In this document: positions 2,871 through 36,046 of the stretch, piece after piece
Position numbering within the stretch: the stretch's first letter is position 1
Layout of the letters: every line of letters starts with the position of its first letter
Assembly (NCBI GenBank): GCA_943355055.1
Contig: CALREA010000001.1
Location: 26,722-90,721 of the forward strand
Length of the DNA: 64,000 bases
Reading direction: 5' to 3'
From: Candidatus Peribacteria bacterium
Lineage (GTDB): Bacteria; Patescibacteriota; Gracilibacteria; UBA1369; UBA12463
Translations under genes and position numbers: made by a program
The notes under the pieces: model-generated
Told to the model about the DNA's origin: nothing
The model's database searches: none
What the model saw: only the letters and a program-made list of their open reading frames with translations

Positions 2871-2965
2871 TTCGGTCAGAAAAATTACAATAATTATTCA
2901 TCTAAATGTCCGAGAAAGTTTAGAGCGGCTTGCTAGTGTGAGAAATGTCAGGAGTGATGGTAAGT

Positions 2966-3036
2966 GGGGATTCTCCGGTGAGGTCAGCCGGCTTATCATC
3001 TGGCAGACACGGGTTCGACTCCCGTAATCTCCACCA
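2966..3036 (+). ncRNA. aberrant tRNA-like element (short, no canonical anticodon arm), CCA encoded
   Basis: Hand fold gives a 7-bp acceptor stem GGGGATT/AATCTCC. The T arm ACGGG-TTCGACT-CCCGT is identical to that of tRNA-Gly(CCC) in this window. A D arm CCGG-9nt-CCGG is possible, followed by discriminator A and CCA. Only 17 nt lie between the D and T arms. The alternative fold has an 8-nt loop CTTATCAT. Confidence 0.4.
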
Positions 3037-3083: not shown

Positions 3084-3278
3084 GTGGGTCCGCCGGCTTA
3101 TCATCTACATGATAGCACGTTTATGATGATTTTTTCAACTCTCTCTAAGTACCGTAGAGTAAACATTGGGGCATAATCTCGTACCCGCAACAACACAGCC
3201 GCCCCAAAGCCAACCAAAAACGCTTTCCATGCTCGCCAACCCCTGATAGAATCACATCTTCAGAGCCCTCCTATACAC

Positions 3279-4968: not shown

Positions 4969-5269
4969 AGACGAGTTTGCCCGCAGATAGAAATGGCGGC
5001 AAGTGCGAATGGTTTTAACAAGCAGACACCAAGGGGAGAGATTCCGGCAGGCTACCCTCCAGGGTAATAATTCGCGTCTCATGATTACTCAAGGTCATGA
5101 TGGTTTTATCAAGTCGCAGATTCATCTTTTTCATGTCATTCTTGGTAGCACACTCACCCAACATATCGATAATGGTATGAAACGAGGATGACATATCTTC
5201 TTTGGTATAAAAATGTAATAGATCATCCTTCGTGGCAAGAAGTGCAACTGCACTCGCCAACTCATATCT

Positions 5270-5484
5270 GAAAAGACCCTAGTTTTCACAAAATTGGCAC
5301 ATTGACTTTCATGTTTATGGGTTTATAAGCATATAATTATCAAAAAAGTGCCTTTTTTGAAGCTAAAAATTTCCCCGGGGAAATTAGTGAATCATACGAT
5401 GAAAATGGCATATATCAAACGGTCAGTTTTTTTGATGGCTTTTATAGGCCATAATATCGACACTGGAAAAACTGGGGTCTTTTC
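5270..5484. mobile_element. MITE-like non-autonomous element (~215 bp) with terminal inverted repeats and target-site duplication
   Basis: TIRs are GAAAAGACCCTAGTTTT (5270-5286) and the reverse complement of 5468-5484, GAAAAGACCCCAGTTTT (16/17 match). The flanking direct repeat AACTCATATCT sits at 5259-5269 and 5485-5495. No ORF is large enough to encode a transposase. Confidence 0.6.
5368..5385. repeat. perfect 18-nt palindrome AATTTCCCCGGGGAAATT inside the MITE
   Basis: Self-complementary by inspection. The homologous position in the second copy (34454-34471) has AATTTCGGCGCCGAAATT. Confidence 0.5.
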
Positions 5485-5690
5485 AACTCATATCTCTTGT
5501 CCTTTCCGATATTTATTTTCACACTAGCACGCCAATCTAACAAAAGTCTGAAAAAATCGTGAATTTTTGTTGTAATTTTTCTGACACGCACCTTGAAGCT
5601 CGAAACTGAAAAAAATGTGCATACAAAAATGGTAATCCAGACCACTTATGATAACAAAATCAAAAGCTCAACAAAGCTAAAATCTCAGGT

Positions 5691-5767
5691 CGACCAGAAG
5701 CCATAAAGCTTTTGCTAATTATTGCAACACAGTACGGCGGCACAAAGCTGAGATTTGTGATATAATA
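5691..5767 (+). promoter_or_regulatory. promoter/operator module, copy L (extended -10 TGaTATAAT at 5758-5766, palindrome CACAAA-N7-TTTGTG at 5741-5759)
   Basis: ~92% identical (6 mismatches in 77 nt, hand alignment) to the reverse complement of 14813-14889. It lies immediately upstream of the small ORF and giant ORF operon. Confidence 0.6.
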
Positions 5768-6109
5768 ATGGGATATTTTTATTGCATTCCCATGTCATCA
5801 ATCACGCTATCTCAGCTCATTAAAAAGAGCCTTCTCATCTCGCCTGACATGAAGGAGGATCTCACTCGTAAAATAACTACATTTACGGAATTTCAGCAGC
5901 AAGAAATGATCGAGGCCATTGAGGCATCAGAAAAAGACCTCGAGCAAATTCTCGATCATGCCATCAGTAATGATCCAAAAAAGCTCACCATAATCCAGCA
6001 GAAACTCGACGATGTATGGAAGCGGTATGTGAAGGAGGTGGAAAAAGTTTCAGAATCGGCGGAAACAACACAGGAACAGGTGCTGCTCGATCAGCTCGAT
6101 CAGGAATAA
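5768..6109 (+). CDS. small acidic hypothetical protein (likely real start ATG 5792, 105 aa)
   Basis: ORF rich in E/D/Q with a coiled-coil-like character. It ends 12 nt before the giant ORF. The ATG at 5768 abuts the -10 box, so 5792 (MSSITLSQL...) is the more plausible start. Confidence 0.6.
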   Translation: MGYFYCIPMSSITLSQLIKKSLLISPDMKEDLTRKITTFTEFQQQEMIEAIEASEKDLEQILDHAISNDPKKLTIIQQKLDDVWKRYVKEVEKVSESAETTQEQVLLDQLDQE

Positions 6110-6121
6110 AACAAACAAACT

Positions 6122-9100
6122 ATGGCAGAACAGAACGCTATAAAAACTCAACAGAAACGACTCGATGCCATCGATCAGAAAGAAGATCGGGAAGTTCTGG
6201 TTGGCGAGAAAAAATATGGGGATGTTATATTCGGGAAAGTAGCCTCCCTCACTCGTAAAATTGATACCGATGCGGGTATTACCGATGAGCGCGTGAAGGC
6301 GCTGCCGGCGTTCCGGAAGCTCAAGCAGGATGCCATGAATACAGCCCACGACGAGCTGAAAAATATTGACGAGAAAAACATCGATGCAGCAACCAAGAAG
6401 CTCGAACTCACCATTCGTCAGCTCGAAGTCAAGTTTGAGAAGATGAAAGAGCTTACGCCGCTCATGGACACATTCGAGAAGTTCCAAAAAATGTTTGGCG
6501 CATTGCCGTTTCTGCGTGATTGGATGACGCTCTATACCGCTATCGATCCGACCAAACGAGCGCCACCCGAGACGATGATGAAGGATATGGAAAAGCTCAT
6601 GAGTATCGGTGGTGGATATGCTCCGGCAGGAGAAATGGTGAAACATATGGAACTCGATGTCGTAAATCTGATGGGTGCGTACTTGCGCGGAGATCGAGCG
6701 ACAGCCGACATGACGATCATCGTACTCAGTGAGCGCCTCGCATTCGCTCGGCGCGTCACAGAACACCTCCCCAAAATCAAAGAAGAACGCAAAAAGATCG
6801 AAACATCAATCCGTGAGTATGAGTCGCATAATGCCGCGCTGCGAACCGCCATCAGTTCGGGTCGTCCGTTGCAATTCATGAAGGGCCTCGAGCAGAGCTA
6901 TCTCGATGGAATCAAGCTCATGCCGGCATTGAAAAGTATGACGAAGTGGGAAAAAGAACTCACAGGAGAAACGAACGGTCGCGTGTCAGTAGGATATGAG
7001 AAATTATTACCCAATGAAGTTCGCAAAGAAGTAACATTTACGACCATCGCTATTGATGGCCAGGGTAAGCCAAAAGATATGCCTGCGAACATTCCTCTTA
7101 CGCAGGAAGCGATGGTGAGAACGGAAGAAACCCTCCAGGGTCAGCTCCTCATGATCCGTCGTGGTATCTATCTCACGACTAAGGATCAAAAATACAAATC
7201 GTACTTCGATCAGAGTCAGGAGAAGATGACGAGCCGATTGATTGATGACGCGTTGCAATATCTACAGGATGCTCAACAAGCAGATCATCAGGAGTCTCCA
7301 CGCTCTATACTTGAACCTCTTCAAGCAAGCGATTTTGACGGAAATCAGACAAAAGAAATTCATCAGTACATGGGTATTATCGCCGGCAACTTCGACAGTA
7401 TACAGCGAATGCAGCCGGAGAATCCCATCGGAGCCGCGCAAGAAAACTCACTGTTTCAAAAACGGGTTCTTTCTCTCAGGAAAAAACTGGGAGCTGGTGG
7501 TGTCGATGCGAATGCGAATACCACCACCATACTCGGTAATGAAGCACAATTCCTCGGTACCAAACTCATGAATTTTTCGAAACTCAAAGAGCAATCTCCT
7601 AAACAACACGAGGCATTCACGAATATTCTCAACACCTACCTCCAACAATCACGCGCTCTTTCCGGCCAGATGCTCACGCAAAATCCAATCATCGGCGAGT
7701 TCCAGCAACAGAGTGTGGATGCTAAGCAGATGTTTTCTGGCCTTTCCACAACTTTCCAGAACCTCTCCGTCAAAATAGAAAAAACAGGCGAGGGATTTTC
7801 TGAGTTGGATATGGATGATATCAAAAAAGAAATTACCACTTTCCGATCGCGAACATCATATAAATTTCTCAAAGGCTCACAAGCAATGAGTGTCCTGCAG
7901 GAGATGAAAAAATACATGAGCGATCCATCGCTAATCCCTCCGAAAGATTTGGCCATGATCAAGCAGGCCGAACAATCGATTTTGCAAAGCCAGATGGCGC
8001 TTCAGCAGATCGATCAGACATGCGAGCAACTCATGGGGATGAGTGGATATGGGGTAGGGAAGAATCTTATTCTCAGTCATCTGAAATTAATCGCGAAGAT
8101 TGCGGCGGCAGTAATCGGTGCCGTCGTAGTAGGTCAGGTGATTGCAGCAAGTGGTGGGCTGGGAATTGTTGCCGCAGGTACGGGATTGGGAGAGAAGGTG
8201 CTTGAGTTTCTTGCGATAAATGCACTTATTGGAACGGGCGCTACAGCTGGATCGGCTATTGGCGATAGTCTCATCGAGCAAAATATGAACGCTTTTCAAA
8301 AAGATCAAATTATTCAATCTTGGGTGAGAAATGTAGCGATGTCTACGGCTGCTGGCGCACTTAGTCCACTTCTCGGTACCGGTATGGGCAGAGTTTCCGC
8401 GACCTCCATGAAAATGATGCAGCAAAGTCGCCTCGGATTCATCCGTACTGCTGGTGCTAACATAGAAGCCCGCGCCCTCAAACAAGCCTTAGCCGCAAAC
8501 GCCGAACGCCATCTCTCCGGCAACATATTCAAAAATATGCTCAGAGAAACCAAAGAAGAACTCTTCGAAGAAGGTCTCGAAGCCACAGGTCGTGCCATTG
8601 CACCTGATGATCCTTCCTTAGGTTTTGCTTTTTCTCTGCTGGGTTCTGCATATGGACATGGAAAGAGGGTGGAGGGGGAAAAAACGATGCCAAGATATGT
8701 CATGAGTCCCTCCGAGCACACCACTGCACGCCAACAATACATCAACAATGTGCGGGATGGGAAAGCCGACAATTATGCCGGAGAGATCGATGATTTCCTT
8801 GCAATGGGGCGAGTGGTAACCGATGAACAGGGCATCCTTCACATAACTCGCGGGAATGAAACACTTTCTATACCAACATCCATTCCCGAGGGGAATATAT
8901 TCCGGAAATATAGGAAGTTATTCGGAAATGATTTTTTGAAACTAAAAGAGTTCATGCGATTTTTAGATGATGTTCACGCTCGGCCGAATGGAGAAAAACT
9001 TCTGAAGGCGATCGGCCACTGCAACACGAATAATATCAATATTCTAAAGGTACTCGTCGATCTCCCTAACTTAGAAAATCAAGAATTTCTTTATCACATA

Positions 9101-18025: not shown

Positions 18026-18901
18026 TCACCGCGGCTTTCTATACTGCTGTACTAATCTGTCAATGAAATACTTCGGGTCATCTTCACTCGCAACCTTCAG
18101 CACCCTCCACTCCCGCGGAATCACCGTCTCATCCTCAATCAACCCCATATGTACCACTCGTTCATGAGCGGTACACAGAGCGACAATTTGATCCGGGTCA
18201 TGCACGGCATCCAATGCAAATCGTTGAGTATGATGGAGAATAGCATATACTTTCCGACATTGGCCAAACTCACACAATCCACGACTACGTCTCATGATAA
18301 ACTTCATGATCTCCGCCGGAATATGTCGCGCGGCATCTTCGACAGTCTCCGGTTTCTCAGACGCAAGCGTTTTCTCTCGATAGATCAAAAACTCACGAAA
18401 AAGATCTTCCCACGACCCACCATCGCGCAATTTTTCCAACTGCTCCGCAAGCTCTTTCGACACCCGCACATCGAGCAAAATTTTCTCCATATGAAGGAAA
18501 TCAGCTTCATTTTTCACGGGGCTCACACCACGCTGTCGTCTCACCTCTCGAACATACGTTTCCAACGCATTCACTCCCATATGTTTTGCCTTTTCCGCCC
18601 AAAAATCAGAAGTCTCAAGCGTAGCGATCACCGCTACCGGACGAACGGCACCGAGGCCCTTTTCACGAGCAACTTCCATCAATGCCGGCTTATCGTGAAT
18701 TCGATCCAGAATACGCAACGCTTCATCCACCGTTGCTCCACTCATCCCCGCAAACACGCGGGCATATTCATACACACTCGGAAAACCCTTTTGTTTCCAA
18801 ACTCCACGTCGCATAATTTCCGGCAACATAAGGGCACACTTTCGCAGAGCTTCCTTCGCAGCAGAACCATGGCGTACAAATTTTTCGTGCAGGTCTTCCA
18901 T
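18026..18901 (-). CDS. HNH endonuclease domain protein (DUF222-like N-terminus)
   Basis: C-terminal HNH-type motif HHTQRFALDAVHDPDQIVALCTAHERVVH. 291 aa. Confidence 0.8.
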   Translation of the reverse strand: MEDLHEKFVRHGSAAKEALRKCALMLPEIMRRGVWKQKGFPSVYEYARVFAGMSGATVDEALRILDRIHDKPALMEVAREKGLGAVRPVAVIATLETSDFWAEKAKHMGVNALETYVREVRRQRGVSPVKNEADFLHMEKILLDVRVSKELAEQLEKLRDGGSWEDLFREFLIYREKTLASEKPETVEDAARHIPAEIMKFIMRRSRGLCEFGQCRKVYAILHHTQRFALDAVHDPDQIVALCTAHERVVHMGLIEDETVIPREWRVLKVASEDDPKYFIDRLVQQYRKPR

Positions 18902-34255: not shown

Positions 34256-34335
34256 TATCCAAAAATACAACAAGGCTTCCGTCTTCTACTGGAACGAAAC
34301 AGGCATTTGTAGTCCCAAAAAAGTCAACATAACTA

Positions 34336-34560
34336 AAAAAGCCCCAGTTTTTCAAAAATTCCAACATTGACTTTTATGTTGATGAGTTTATGAATATATA
34401 ATTCTCAGAAAAGTACCATTTTTAAAGCTGTAGCGAAGCATCCCTTGTGGAAAAATTTCGGCGCCGAAATTCTTGAATAGATCATGATTTCGGATAAAGT
34501 CAAACGCGCGCGCACAGGCTACATTTCACGATGGCTTTTTTAGGCTAAGTAATTTGCTTT
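34336..34560 (+). repeat. second, partly degenerate copy of the MITE-like module
   Basis: 34355-34430 is ~80% identical (61/76, ungapped hand alignment) to 5290-5365, including TTGACT. The left TIR-like end is AAAAGCCCCAGTTTTT, and the homologous palindrome is at 34454-34471. The right end is not recognisable. Confidence 0.45.
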
Positions 34561-34645
34561 TAAGACCAAAAAATGGTACAATAAAAAGATACGGTTGAAG
34601 CTAAAAACAGAAAAGCCGGATTTCTATTCGTTAATAAAAAGTAAT

Positions 34646-36046
34646 ATGCACATCAAATTCTGCGGCGCAGCCAGAGAAGTAACCGGATCCAGACACCTCT
34701 TGACCATTAATGGAAAAAAAATCCTCCTCGATTGCGGCATGGCGCAGGGGAGTCGAAAAGAATCGGCGGAAAAAAACAAAACGCTCATGTTCGATCCGAA
34801 GGAGCTTGATATGATTATCGTTTCTCATGCTCACATCGATCACTCGGGAATACTACCTTATGTGGTAAAAAATGGCTTCAAGGGGATTATTTATGCAACA
34901 CCGGCCACCAAGGATCTGGTTGACTACATGCTCATGGACAGTGCGATGATTCAGGAAAAAGAAGCGGAATATCTCGCAAAGAAAGGCAAAACCTGCGAAC
35001 CGCCACTGTACTCTACGGAAGACGCCGAAAATACGGCAAAACTGTTCGTCGGTGTTCCCTATGAGAAATCGATCACCATTGCCGACGGGATCATGCTGAC
35101 GATGTATAACGCCGGCCATATTCTCGGTTCCGCGCAGATTCATATCCAAATCGACGACAAAGAGACAGGGAAGCAGTACACGCTCGGGTTTACCGGTGAT
35201 TTGGGAAGGAAAAACCTCCCACTGCTGAAGGATCCGGTTCTGCTGCCTCCTACCGATTATCTTCTCTGTGAATCGACCTATGGAAATCGTTTCCATGCGG
35301 CCATTCAGACGGTGGAACAGGATCTCGCCGACATCATCAACAGAACAGCCAAGCGCGGCGGAAGAATTATTATTCCCGCATTCGCCCTCGAGCGCACGCA
35401 GGAGATTGTGTACTACCTCAACATTCTTTGGAAGGATAAGAAAATTCCCGAACTGCCGATTTATGTGGATAGCCCACTCTCGGTAAATCTTACCGAGGTA
35501 TTCAAAAAACATCTCGACAATTTCGACGAAGAGACGCATGAGGAATTTATCAAGCATGGGGATAATCCGTTTGGTTTTGGTCGTCTCACCTATACCAAAA
35601 GTGTGGAAGAATCCAAGCGGCTCAATGAACTCAACGGGCCGATGATTATTATTTCATCATCCGGAATGTGCGAGCATGGACGTATCCTCCATCATCTGAA
35701 AAATAATATCAGCAATCCCCGTAACACCGTTCTTCTCGTCGGGTATCAGGCGGAAAATACCCTTGGAAGAAAAATATTTAACGGGGAAAAGTCGGTCAAT
35801 ATCTTCGGCGATCCCTACGACGTGAAGGCGGAAATTATTGTAATGGATGCGTTTTCCGCGCATGCCGACCGCAGCGATCTCCTCGATTACATGAAGAAGC
35901 TAAATGATGTCCAGCCGATAAAAAAAATCTTCCTCATCCACGGCGAAGAAGGTCAGGGGCTCGATTTCGAGATATTCCTTCGCGAATCAGGCTTCACCAA
36001 CATCGCCGTTCCGTCTCCCGGCCAGGAGTTTGAGCTTCCGGAGTAA
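34646..36046 (+). CDS. MBL-fold beta-CASP ribonuclease (RNase J/CPSF-like)
   Basis: VSHAHIDHSG metallo-beta-lactamase motif and collinear beta-CASP motifs. The conserved part starts at MHIKFCGAAREVTGS (ATG 34646); the ORF track starts at 34595 (TTG). Confidence 0.85.
   Translation: MHIKFCGAAREVTGSRHLLTINGKKILLDCGMAQGSRKESAEKNKTLMFDPKELDMIIVSHAHIDHSGILPYVVKNGFKGIIYATPATKDLVDYMLMDSAMIQEKEAEYLAKKGKTCEPPLYSTEDAENTAKLFVGVPYEKSITIADGIMLTMYNAGHILGSAQIHIQIDDKETGKQYTLGFTGDLGRKNLPLLKDPVLLPPTDYLLCESTYGNRFHAAIQTVEQDLADIINRTAKRGGRIIIPAFALERTQEIVYYLNILWKDKKIPELPIYVDSPLSVNLTEVFKKHLDNFDEETHEEFIKHGDNPFGFGRLTYTKSVEESKRLNELNGPMIIISSSGMCEHGRILHHLKNNISNPRNTVLLVGYQAENTLGRKIFNGEKSVNIFGDPYDVKAEIIVMDAFSAHADRSDLLDYMKKLNDVQPIKKIFLIHGEEGQGLDFEIFLRESGFTNIAVPSPGQEFELPE

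Follow-up and report, generated by a model that had tools for sequence, protein, structure and literature searches.

In the 64,000-nucleotide stretch of a Candidatus Peribacteria bacterium genome analysed here (contig CALREA010000001.1 of assembly GCA_943355055.1, positions 26,722 to 90,721 of the forward strand; hereafter the window, with position 1 as its first letter), a short AT-rich element, called copy A, lies between a DHH/NrnA-like gene and an operon encoding a small protein followed by a giant protein. An earlier note made from the sequence had proposed that it is a miniature inverted-repeat transposable element (MITE), and the analysis supports that proposal. Copy A is a genuine MITE-type insertion belonging to a documented mobile-element family in Peregrinibacteria, being bounded by terminal inverted repeats (TIRs), non-coding, flanked by a target duplication, part of a dispersed family and absent from the matching intergenic region of relatives. 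Its parts are the following.

5258 to 5269, unstranded: left direct-repeat copy CAACTCATATCT, the target-site duplication (the 11-mer of the earlier note is 5259-5269)
5268 to 5287, plus strand: left terminus CTGAAAAGACCCTAGTTTTC, family consensus CT-RAAAAGACCCCAGTTTTT
5287 to 5467, unstranded: AT-rich interior, homologous only to the interiors of copies B and C, described below
5302 to 5329, plus strand: promoter-like site TTGACT-16-TATAAG, proposed in the earlier note
5368 to 5385, unstranded: perfect 18-nt palindrome AATTTCCCCGGGGAAATT, exactly central in the element
5467 to 5484, minus strand: right terminus, of which 5467-5483 is an exact match to the family consensus AAAAGACCCCAGTTTTT (17-nt core)
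5484 to 5495, unstranded: right direct-repeat copy CAACTCATATCT

The inverted repeats, GAAAAGACCCTAGTTTT at 5270-5286 and the reverse complement of 5468-5484 (GAAAAGACCCCAGTTTT), are identical at 16 of 17 positions, exactly as first described, and repeat finding lengthens the arms to 18 nt (5269-5286 and 5468-5485). They are abutted by the direct repeat AACTCATATCT at 5259-5269 and 5485-5495, which extends to 12 nt when the preceding C is included (5258-5269 and 5484-5495). When the window was scanned for inverted repeats matching at 16/17 or better, whose arms are separated by 60-600 nt and adjoin a direct repeat of 9 nt or more, copy A was the only structure of its type, and none of 30 first-order-Markov randomised windows gave any structure under the same criteria; the structure is therefore real and not a product of chance. 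As single-stranded DNA, the termini fold into a stem with a dG of -32.7 kcal/mol (z = -4.2). Copy A is about 215-219 bp long (5268/5270 to 5484/5486), while its family relatives measure 205-253 bp, and its GC content is 0.34 compared to 0.46 for the window. The only open reading frame (ORF) of at least 30 codons lying mainly inside the element, which encodes 59 aa (5348-5527), had no Pfam match and is not open in copy B, in line with the initial claim that the element holds no transposase ORF. Rfam searches of both window copies at permissive thresholds gave only chance-level hits to small nucleolar RNAs and small RNAs.

As the direct repeat overlaps the inverted repeat, the boundaries of copy A are ambiguous by 1-3 nt. 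The duplication was initially given as 11 bp; an exact direct repeat is indeed present, while its length is readable as anything from 7 to 12 bp, with 10 or 11 bp the most economical at this locus. Placing the ends symmetrically at CT...AG gives a duplication of 7 bp in copy A and of 8 bp in the L015 element, a family member described below, whereas a 2-nt asymmetry of the ends gives 10 bp in both, with 11 bp also possible for copy A.

A BLAST search for other copies, of the kind that the earlier note had suggested, returned one more in the window, and another was met in a related genome when orthologous loci were compared; neither is near-identical to copy A. The one in the window is the following.

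34333 to 34585, plus strand: copy B, a decayed second copy, ending 10 nt upstream of the beta-CASP ORF 34595-36046

Copy B is about 80% identical to copy A over the left 94 nt and is homologous along its whole length, with insertions of 21 nt and 11 nt. It keeps 15 of 17 positions of the left terminus, its right terminus is eroded, it shows no duplication and it lies in the same orientation as copy A. Copy C, of the same A/B type and with both termini present, occupies a different locus (1696-1922) in the genome L018 (GCA_964356305.1), a relative of the window genome whose DHH protein is 78% identical. The interiors of the three copies are homologous to one another (interior alignment z = 27.6), and each of the three lies in a divergent intergenic region, oriented alike with respect to the downstream gene.

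Two further members, the L014 and L015 elements, were found in JGI metagenome contigs that were scanned for two termini 166-196 nt apart, giving pattern matches 197-206 nt long. Their termini, (CT)AAAAAGACCCCAGTTTTT ... AAAAACTGGGGTCTTTTT, are perfect over 19-20 nt. Their interiors are unrelated to those of the A/B type and to each other, and about 18 subterminal nt are common to the left end of L014 and the right end of L015. The L014 element sits exactly between two convergent genes. The consensus CT-RAAAAGACCCCAGTTTTT was taken from an alignment of the seven ends with a recognisable terminus; CT precedes the core (RAAAAG) at five of nine scorable ends, including both ends of L015, and the others include TT, AT and GC. 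In all, two copies were seen in 74 kb of the window genome (one intact, one decayed) and one in 13.7 kb of its relative, with none in the 10 kb to the left of the window, none in about 36 kb from other relatives of the window genome and none in about 35 kb from relatives of the L015 species. In viral contigs, neither the TIR pair nor one 19-nt terminus as the query gave a match. A scan of GTDB genomes with the core ACATTGACTTTNATGTTNATG returned 10 matches in unrelated taxa, which agreed in the pattern only and were set aside as chance; the differing core of copy C escapes this query.

One feature of the surroundings recurs in the family. Copy B and the element at 18626-18830 of L033, which is the same family member as L015, have unrelated interiors, and each immediately precedes a gene for a metallo-beta-lactamase/beta-CASP ribonuclease (the ORF at 34595-36046 and RNase J, respectively). 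This is probably a coincidence, the two genes being of different beta-CASP subfamilies.

The L015 element is flanked on both sides by AGAAAGGACG (8-10 bp, depending on where the ends are placed). Because this repeat differs from that of copy A, the flanking repeats are target duplications and not a fixed recombination or attachment core. The element is identical in three assemblies of its species, in one orientation only, and is located 26 nt ahead of the start codon of RNase J, adjoining a promoter-like TGGACT...TGCTAGGAT of that gene. The sister species L028, whose FtsZ is 94% identical, lacks the element at the site upstream of RNase J. With the element and one copy of the repeat taken out, L033 aligns colinearly to L028 across the junction with a score of 78, compared to 51 with the element retained. 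The region upstream of RNase J in L028 is an orthologous empty site for this family member. L028 also carries, at about 18470-18490 and some 45 nt from the position of the L033 element, the sequence AAGACTGGGGTTTACTTT, which resembles the family terminus at 13 of 17 positions and may be either a solo-end relic or a chance match.

The locus into which copy A inserted is made of several parts, of which the following surround the element.

4969 to 5700, unstranded: lineage-specific block (gene remnant, MITE and module) between the DHH/NrnA-like gene and the small-gene/giant-gene operon
5015 to 5260, minus strand: remnant of a P0001-like small coiled-coil gene, 81 codons
5482 to 5587, minus strand: promoter/leader module, 90.6% identical to the region 5' of the P0001 start codon in L003

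The spacer from the DHH gene to the small gene before the giant gene measures 823 nt in the window, compared to 138 nt in L018 and L021 and 97 nt in L026/L027. The excess over the four related genomes is about 700 nt, which makes the P0001-like remnant, together with its promoter module, a lineage-specific acquisition in its own right. The only locus encoding a homologue of the remnant ORF was L003, where the protein, P0001, has 186 aa; the remnant is 73% identical to it over 41 aa. Five of the nine codon differences are synonymous in that frame, which indicates that the remnant was once coding. Compared to L003, 28 codons of the N-terminus are missing from it together with the start codon, and its junction lies at GAGTTG, a sequence that also opens the internal VELxEAVAPLATK repeats of P0001. 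This suggests that a microhomology deletion fused the leader to an internal P0001 repeat before the MITE arrived. In the gene table of the assembly, no product is given for the ORF at 5015-5260, and an antisense product of 60 aa is listed instead.

The module, 70-105 nt long, recurs at window 2875-2944 (plus strand) and at about 5617-5690 of L018, which is the orthologous position, besides L003 3095-3200. It follows the pattern GTCAGAAAAATTACAATAATTATTCA...TTAGA...TGCTAGTGTGA and stands upstream of unrelated genes, namely that of a transfer RNA (tRNA)-like RNA and that of the P0001-like protein, so that it is probably a portable promoter/leader. One frame is stop-free over the aligned stretch in all four module copies, though in one copy it runs into the RNA gene. 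The module carries TGCTAGTGT (5529-5521, minus strand), which resembles an extended -10; TGCTAGnAT, which may be read in the same way, is also found upstream of RNase J in L033 and L028. The insertion point of copy A is about 20-30 nt downstream of this motif.

These observations bear on the claim that two minus-strand ORFs, at 5442-5645 and 5015-5260, are the halves of one host ORF that re-joins in frame once the element is taken out. The arithmetic is sound: removal of 5270-5495 (226 nt; 226 mod 3 = 1) joins them into one frame of 134 codons, which reads ...INIGKDKRYELASAVALLATKDD... (also given as ...KDKRYELASAVALL...), and the left terminus contributes, on the minus strand, the TAG that closes the upstream frame. 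However, the upstream half is the promoter/leader module and is not coding, since it is homologous to the non-coding leader of P0001 and recurs before the gene of the tRNA-like RNA; the downstream half has been truncated to a remnant of 81 codons compared to 186. In L003, about 50 nt separate the 11-mer from the start codon of P0001 downstream of it, and what precedes that codon, the counterpart of window 5485-5590, is a non-coding leader. The continuity of the frame is a one-in-three coincidence helped by the stop-free stretch, and annotation of the re-joined 134-codon ORF as a disrupted gene should be avoided.

The target of copy A is again best compared with L003, where the identity is 90.6% over window 5482-5587 and 89.9% over 5141-5239. 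Within these 90%-identical flanks, L003 carries AGATATGAGTT, the reverse complement of the direct repeat, only once and at the position of the right-hand repeat, which makes it a related and unoccupied target. After the shared 11-mer, L003 3198-3220 (GAAGTTTGTTTGTTTTTTCCGGT) agrees in register at 13 of 23 positions with the terminus at window 5484-5462 on the minus strand (GAAAAGACCCCAGTTTTTCCAGT), and at 9 of 10 at the end (GAA...TTTTTCCRGT). The 135 nt that follow the 11-mer in L003 were considered as a decayed element and this was rejected, the local score being 17 against a shuffle mean of 17. Relatives lack the element in the intergenic region corresponding to the copy A locus. Those with DHH proteins 78-83% identical lack the whole block of about 730 bp, so the junction of copy A is not definable there, and look-ups of exact proteins returned the same insertion only and no direct empty allele. 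The search for empty sites proposed in the earlier note has thus yielded an orthologous one for L015/L033 in L028 and none for copy A. With the element missing from the orthologous spacers of relatives and other copies of the TIRs in existence, copy A does not behave as the ordinary conserved intergenic region that had been named as the alternative.

Taken together, we consider it very probable that 5268/5270 to 5484/5486 is a non-autonomous, TIR-bounded MITE of about 215 bp that was inserted by a DDE-type reaction, and that it belongs to a family of Peregrinibacteria/Gracilibacteria-class bacteria of the candidate phyla radiation (CPR). Named homologues of the adjacent DHH/NrnA-like protein belong to Candidatus Peregrinibacteria, Gracilibacteria and the Patescibacteria group, which places the window genome in the CPR. 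From the TIRs together with target duplications of variable sequence, we infer a DDE transposase acting in trans. Such a reaction, either cut-and-paste or copy-in, would have placed the element at the locus, and the repair of staggered target cuts would have left the flanking duplication; the transposase would presumably recognise the family-defining termini. Copy A would have landed in the 5' leader of the P0001-like small coiled-coil gene after that gene had been shortened, parting the gene remnant from its promoter module, with the TAG of the terminus and the terminator-like hairpin now placed between them, where they could affect expression.

Several points weigh against this reading. The duplication is visible in only two of the five family members, copy A and L015; copies B, C and L014 lack it, which is consistent with age. 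The three interior types are unrelated, so that part of the family is defined by some 20-37 nt at the termini. The true ends and the length of the duplication are not fixable, and the symmetric reading with 7-8 bp and the asymmetric reading with 10 bp each require a coincidence. L003 is not a true allele of the copy A site, as the 11-mer there is followed by the 135 nt, which are absent from the window. The copy number in the window genome covers 74 kb only. Lastly, no autonomous element or transposase was found among the approximately 45 window ORFs scanned: Pfam matched no transposase, recombinase or invertase family, and about 10 of the ORFs matched no family. The earlier note had suggested looking for an autonomous insertion sequence (IS) with the same TIRs; none was present among the window ORFs, in the viral contigs or in the JGI scan, whose fixed TIR spacing could not detect a full-length IS.

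As to the source of the termini, the IS4 family, with its IS10, IS50 and ISPepr1 subgroups, may serve as a lead, not as a membership. Members of this family have ends beginning 5'-CT or 5'-CA and terminal repeats of 10-40 bp; CT ends with direct repeats of 7-9 bp are tabulated for IS10, IS50 and ISPepr1, with about 10 bp across the family, and ISPepr1 favours AT-rich targets (De Palmenaer et al. 2008, PMC2266710). The likeness of the present family to these subgroups consists of the CT ends and of a repeat length in range, with duplications of 7-12 bp for copy A and 8-10 bp for L015, compared to the approximately 7-13 bp taken as the range for the family. Compared to the ISPepr1 end consensus YT-AA-YTT---A, the family ends agree at positions 1, 2, 4 and 5 and not at positions 7-9 or 13. 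No gene for a transposase with DDE and YREK motifs was found here, and the link is one of end and duplication features only.

The suggestion that the insertion was caught in the act, by an active element, did not find support. The window corresponds to ENA contig ERZ27280297:k141_1826540, identical over the 7.6 kb compared, and to Logan contig L002 (run ERR5863107), identical over 2.1 kb, so that two independent assemblies have the same insertion. The one point in its favour is that copy A looks the youngest of the family, its duplication being perfect and its termini agreeing at 16/17, while B and C have lost the duplication and part of a terminus. Active mobility is unsupported, as no empty allele of copy A, near-identical second copy or transposase was found. 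The Logan contig ends inside the element at 5383, which is the centre of the palindrome; this may reflect extra copies sharing the left half elsewhere in the genome, or low coverage or an assembly artefact.

Within the element, an outward-facing promoter pointing towards the giant-protein gene had also been proposed. The sequence TTGACT-16nt-TATAAG is present at 5302-5329. However, a consensus promoter scan did not call it, the T at position 6 of the -10 being absent, and called one site on the minus strand of the region, fewer than the shuffle mean of 3.0. The -35-like ACATTGACTTT is conserved in copies A, B and C, whereas the -10 differs (TATAAG, TATGAA and CATAGT, respectively). The giant-protein operon keeps a conserved TGnTATAAT/TATACT promoter of its own about 270 nt further on, which is common to relatives without the element. 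The perfect 18-nt palindrome was confirmed at 5368-5385 and is better supported than the promoter. Its distance from the centre of the element is at most 6 nt in copies A, B and C, and its pairing is kept in the three despite changes on both sides (CCCCGGGG, CGGCGCCG and TCCCGGGA, respectively). On the minus strand of the element a T run follows the palindrome, and L014 and L015 each have a different GC-rich palindrome followed by a T run. A palindrome with a T run would fit a weak intrinsic terminator, though the stem criteria of the scan are unmet.

Other explanations of the same structure have to be weighed. The most attractive alternative is an inverton, in which the inverted repeats are invertase sites and the promoter-bearing segment of about 180 bp between them flips, resulting in phase variation of the giant-protein operon. 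The repeats do enclose about 180 nt with a -35/-10-like pair, next to the gene of a 2237-aa protein, and the same repeat surrounds different interiors of similar length at other loci, as in invertase regulons. Inversion, however, makes no direct repeats, and exact, abutting ones that differ in sequence are present at two independent copies; an orthologous empty site is known for a family member, no recombinase was detected among the window ORFs scanned, and a single orientation is seen in three assemblies of the L015 species and two of the window genome. Considering also that the promoter is uncalled with an unconserved -10 and that the operon owns a conserved TGnTATAAT promoter, we regard an inverton as very unlikely. 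A local relic of a full-length IS, which lost its transposase by internal deletion in situ, is about as improbable. A full IS would leave just such termini and duplication, and there is no sign of recent mobility of the MITE; against this explanation, copies A, B and C share one short form and one interior while occupying three unrelated loci spread over two genomes, and two further short forms of near-equal length occur elsewhere (L014 and L015). Because short forms recur at unrelated loci, the short form itself must have moved.

Two explanations without transposition deserve even less weight. If the region were a non-mobile, conserved regulatory or intergenic RNA module, with the inverted repeat as a long-range stem and the direct repeat coincidental or left by local recombination, it would be expected to keep its pairing, as the central hairpin of A, B and C does through changes on both sides, and the three copies do lie in divergent intergenic regions in like orientation to the downstream gene. 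The direct repeat is far beyond chance, though, and a different one is found at L015; in addition, copies occur at non-homologous loci, relatives lack the element in their orthologous spacers and no Rfam family matches, which leaves this explanation extremely improbable. The other possibility is a bidirectional intrinsic terminator hairpin (AAAAAGACCCCAG ... CTGGGGTCTTTTT) whose loop was enlarged when unrelated DNA inserted into it, the TIRs then being the two stem halves. The juxtaposed termini would indeed make a textbook terminator of A-tract, GC-stem and T-tract, and the position of L014 exactly between convergent genes is what a terminator would have. The flanking duplications are, however, left unexplained, the identical stem recurs at unrelated loci of different genomes and the empty sites carry neither half; this is the explanation that we find hardest to credit.

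A broader view of the family may also be considered, in which cassettes with CT-RAAAAGACCCCAGTTTTT ends are a modular class of about 200 bp in Peregrinibacteria, whose interiors are swapped and which act as portable terminator/insulator-plus-promoter modules beside host promoters, rewiring expression. The common architecture of this class may consist of AT-rich arms and a GC-rich palindromic hairpin followed by a T run, which is near the centre in copies A, B and C and maintained by compensatory change; the RNase J promoter in L033 and the gene leader at copy A may be examples of such cassettes beside host promoters. We consider this view doubtful, and put it forward as a speculative extension of the MITE reading.

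The neighbouring loci provided some further observations. The operon downstream of the block (5768-12835, plus strand) encodes a protein of 104-108 aa and then the giant protein, and is next to the DHH gene in several Peregrinibacteria (L018, L021 and L026). The giant protein has 2237 aa in the window, 1821 and 1752 aa where it is complete in relatives, and, on the truncated contig of L021, 1313 aa or more; the operon gave no Pfam domain above threshold. A further relative, L024, is without the operon and has YebC directly after the DHH gene.

On the other side, in the spacer between RecJ and DHH, lies a tRNA-like gene of 71 nt (window 2966-3036, plus strand; L018 ortholog at about 5706-5776). 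It has the acceptor stem GGGGATT/AATCTCC with a G3:U70 pair, the T-arm CGGGTTCGACTCCCG and an encoded CCA. Both of its ends match the Rfam transfer-messenger RNA (tmRNA) model with 39.6 bits, which is below the gathering threshold of 47 (E = 1.2e-13), with 24 nt between them in place of the 324 of the model, and ARAGORN made no call on 2966-3036. The L018 ortholog keeps the acceptor stem by compensatory change (GGGGGTT/AACCTCC). This gene could represent a tmRNA-like tRNA domain that stands alone, or else a small RNA of an unusual kind. The sequence CCGGCTTATCATCT occurs twice, 104 nt apart, at 2988-3001 inside the tRNA-like gene and at 3092-3105 after a terminator-like hairpin (AAAAGAACCTCTTCAACATGAAAGAGGTTCTTTT), an arrangement that is reminiscent of an attachment-site duplication at a tRNA or tmRNA gene.

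CPR, or Patescibacteria, genomes are small and regarded as poor in mobile DNA. Our full-text literature search returned no paper on MITEs in CPR/Patescibacteria and none pairing Peregrinibacteria with transposases or insertion sequences. The clean duplication and the orthologous empty site described here indicate that DDE-type transposition has operated in Peregrinibacteria, and the region upstream of the giant-protein operon is a recent patchwork that combines a gene remnant with a MITE and a repeated promoter module. The end motif of 20 nt (CTRAAAAGACCCCAGTTTTT as a query) now offers a way to seek the transposase and to establish copy numbers in complete genomes. The understanding of MITEs in general is unchanged by this, as the element is of an ordinary kind.

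Among known systems, invertons such as fimS and the polysaccharide promoter switches of Bacteroides have inverted repeats of about 10-30 bp around a promoter segment of about 150-300 bp near a surface-protein locus; one repeat motif serves at several loci, there is no flanking duplication and a nearby or global invertase is required. Copy A is likewise a promoter-sized segment bounded by inverted repeats, whereas its family has duplications and orthologous empty sites, with no recombinase or alternative orientation seen. The Correia elements (CREE/NEMIS) of Neisseria and the RUP elements of Streptococcus pneumoniae are non-coding, AT-rich elements of about 100-250 bp with TIRs and a target duplication. 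They are mostly intergenic and near promoters, form a long hairpin when single-stranded or transcribed and contain motifs resembling promoters and terminators; only TA or about 2-3 bp is duplicated, copies number from tens to hundreds and the interior is shared within the family. The present family is similar in being short, non-coding, AT-rich, TIR-bounded, intergenic and hairpin-forming with a target duplication, and differs from them in the duplication of about 7-12 bp, the one or two copies per 14-74 kb, the three unrelated interiors and the reduced-genome CPR host. The MIC231 cassettes of the Bacillus cereus group, derived from IS231, combine IS ends with unrelated interiors, are moved in trans by an IS4-family transposase with duplications of 10-12 bp, and are usually larger, with passenger genes and CAT ends. 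With these cassettes the family shares the plan of common ends around unrelated interiors, but in a form that is about 200 bp long, non-coding and bounded by CT ends.

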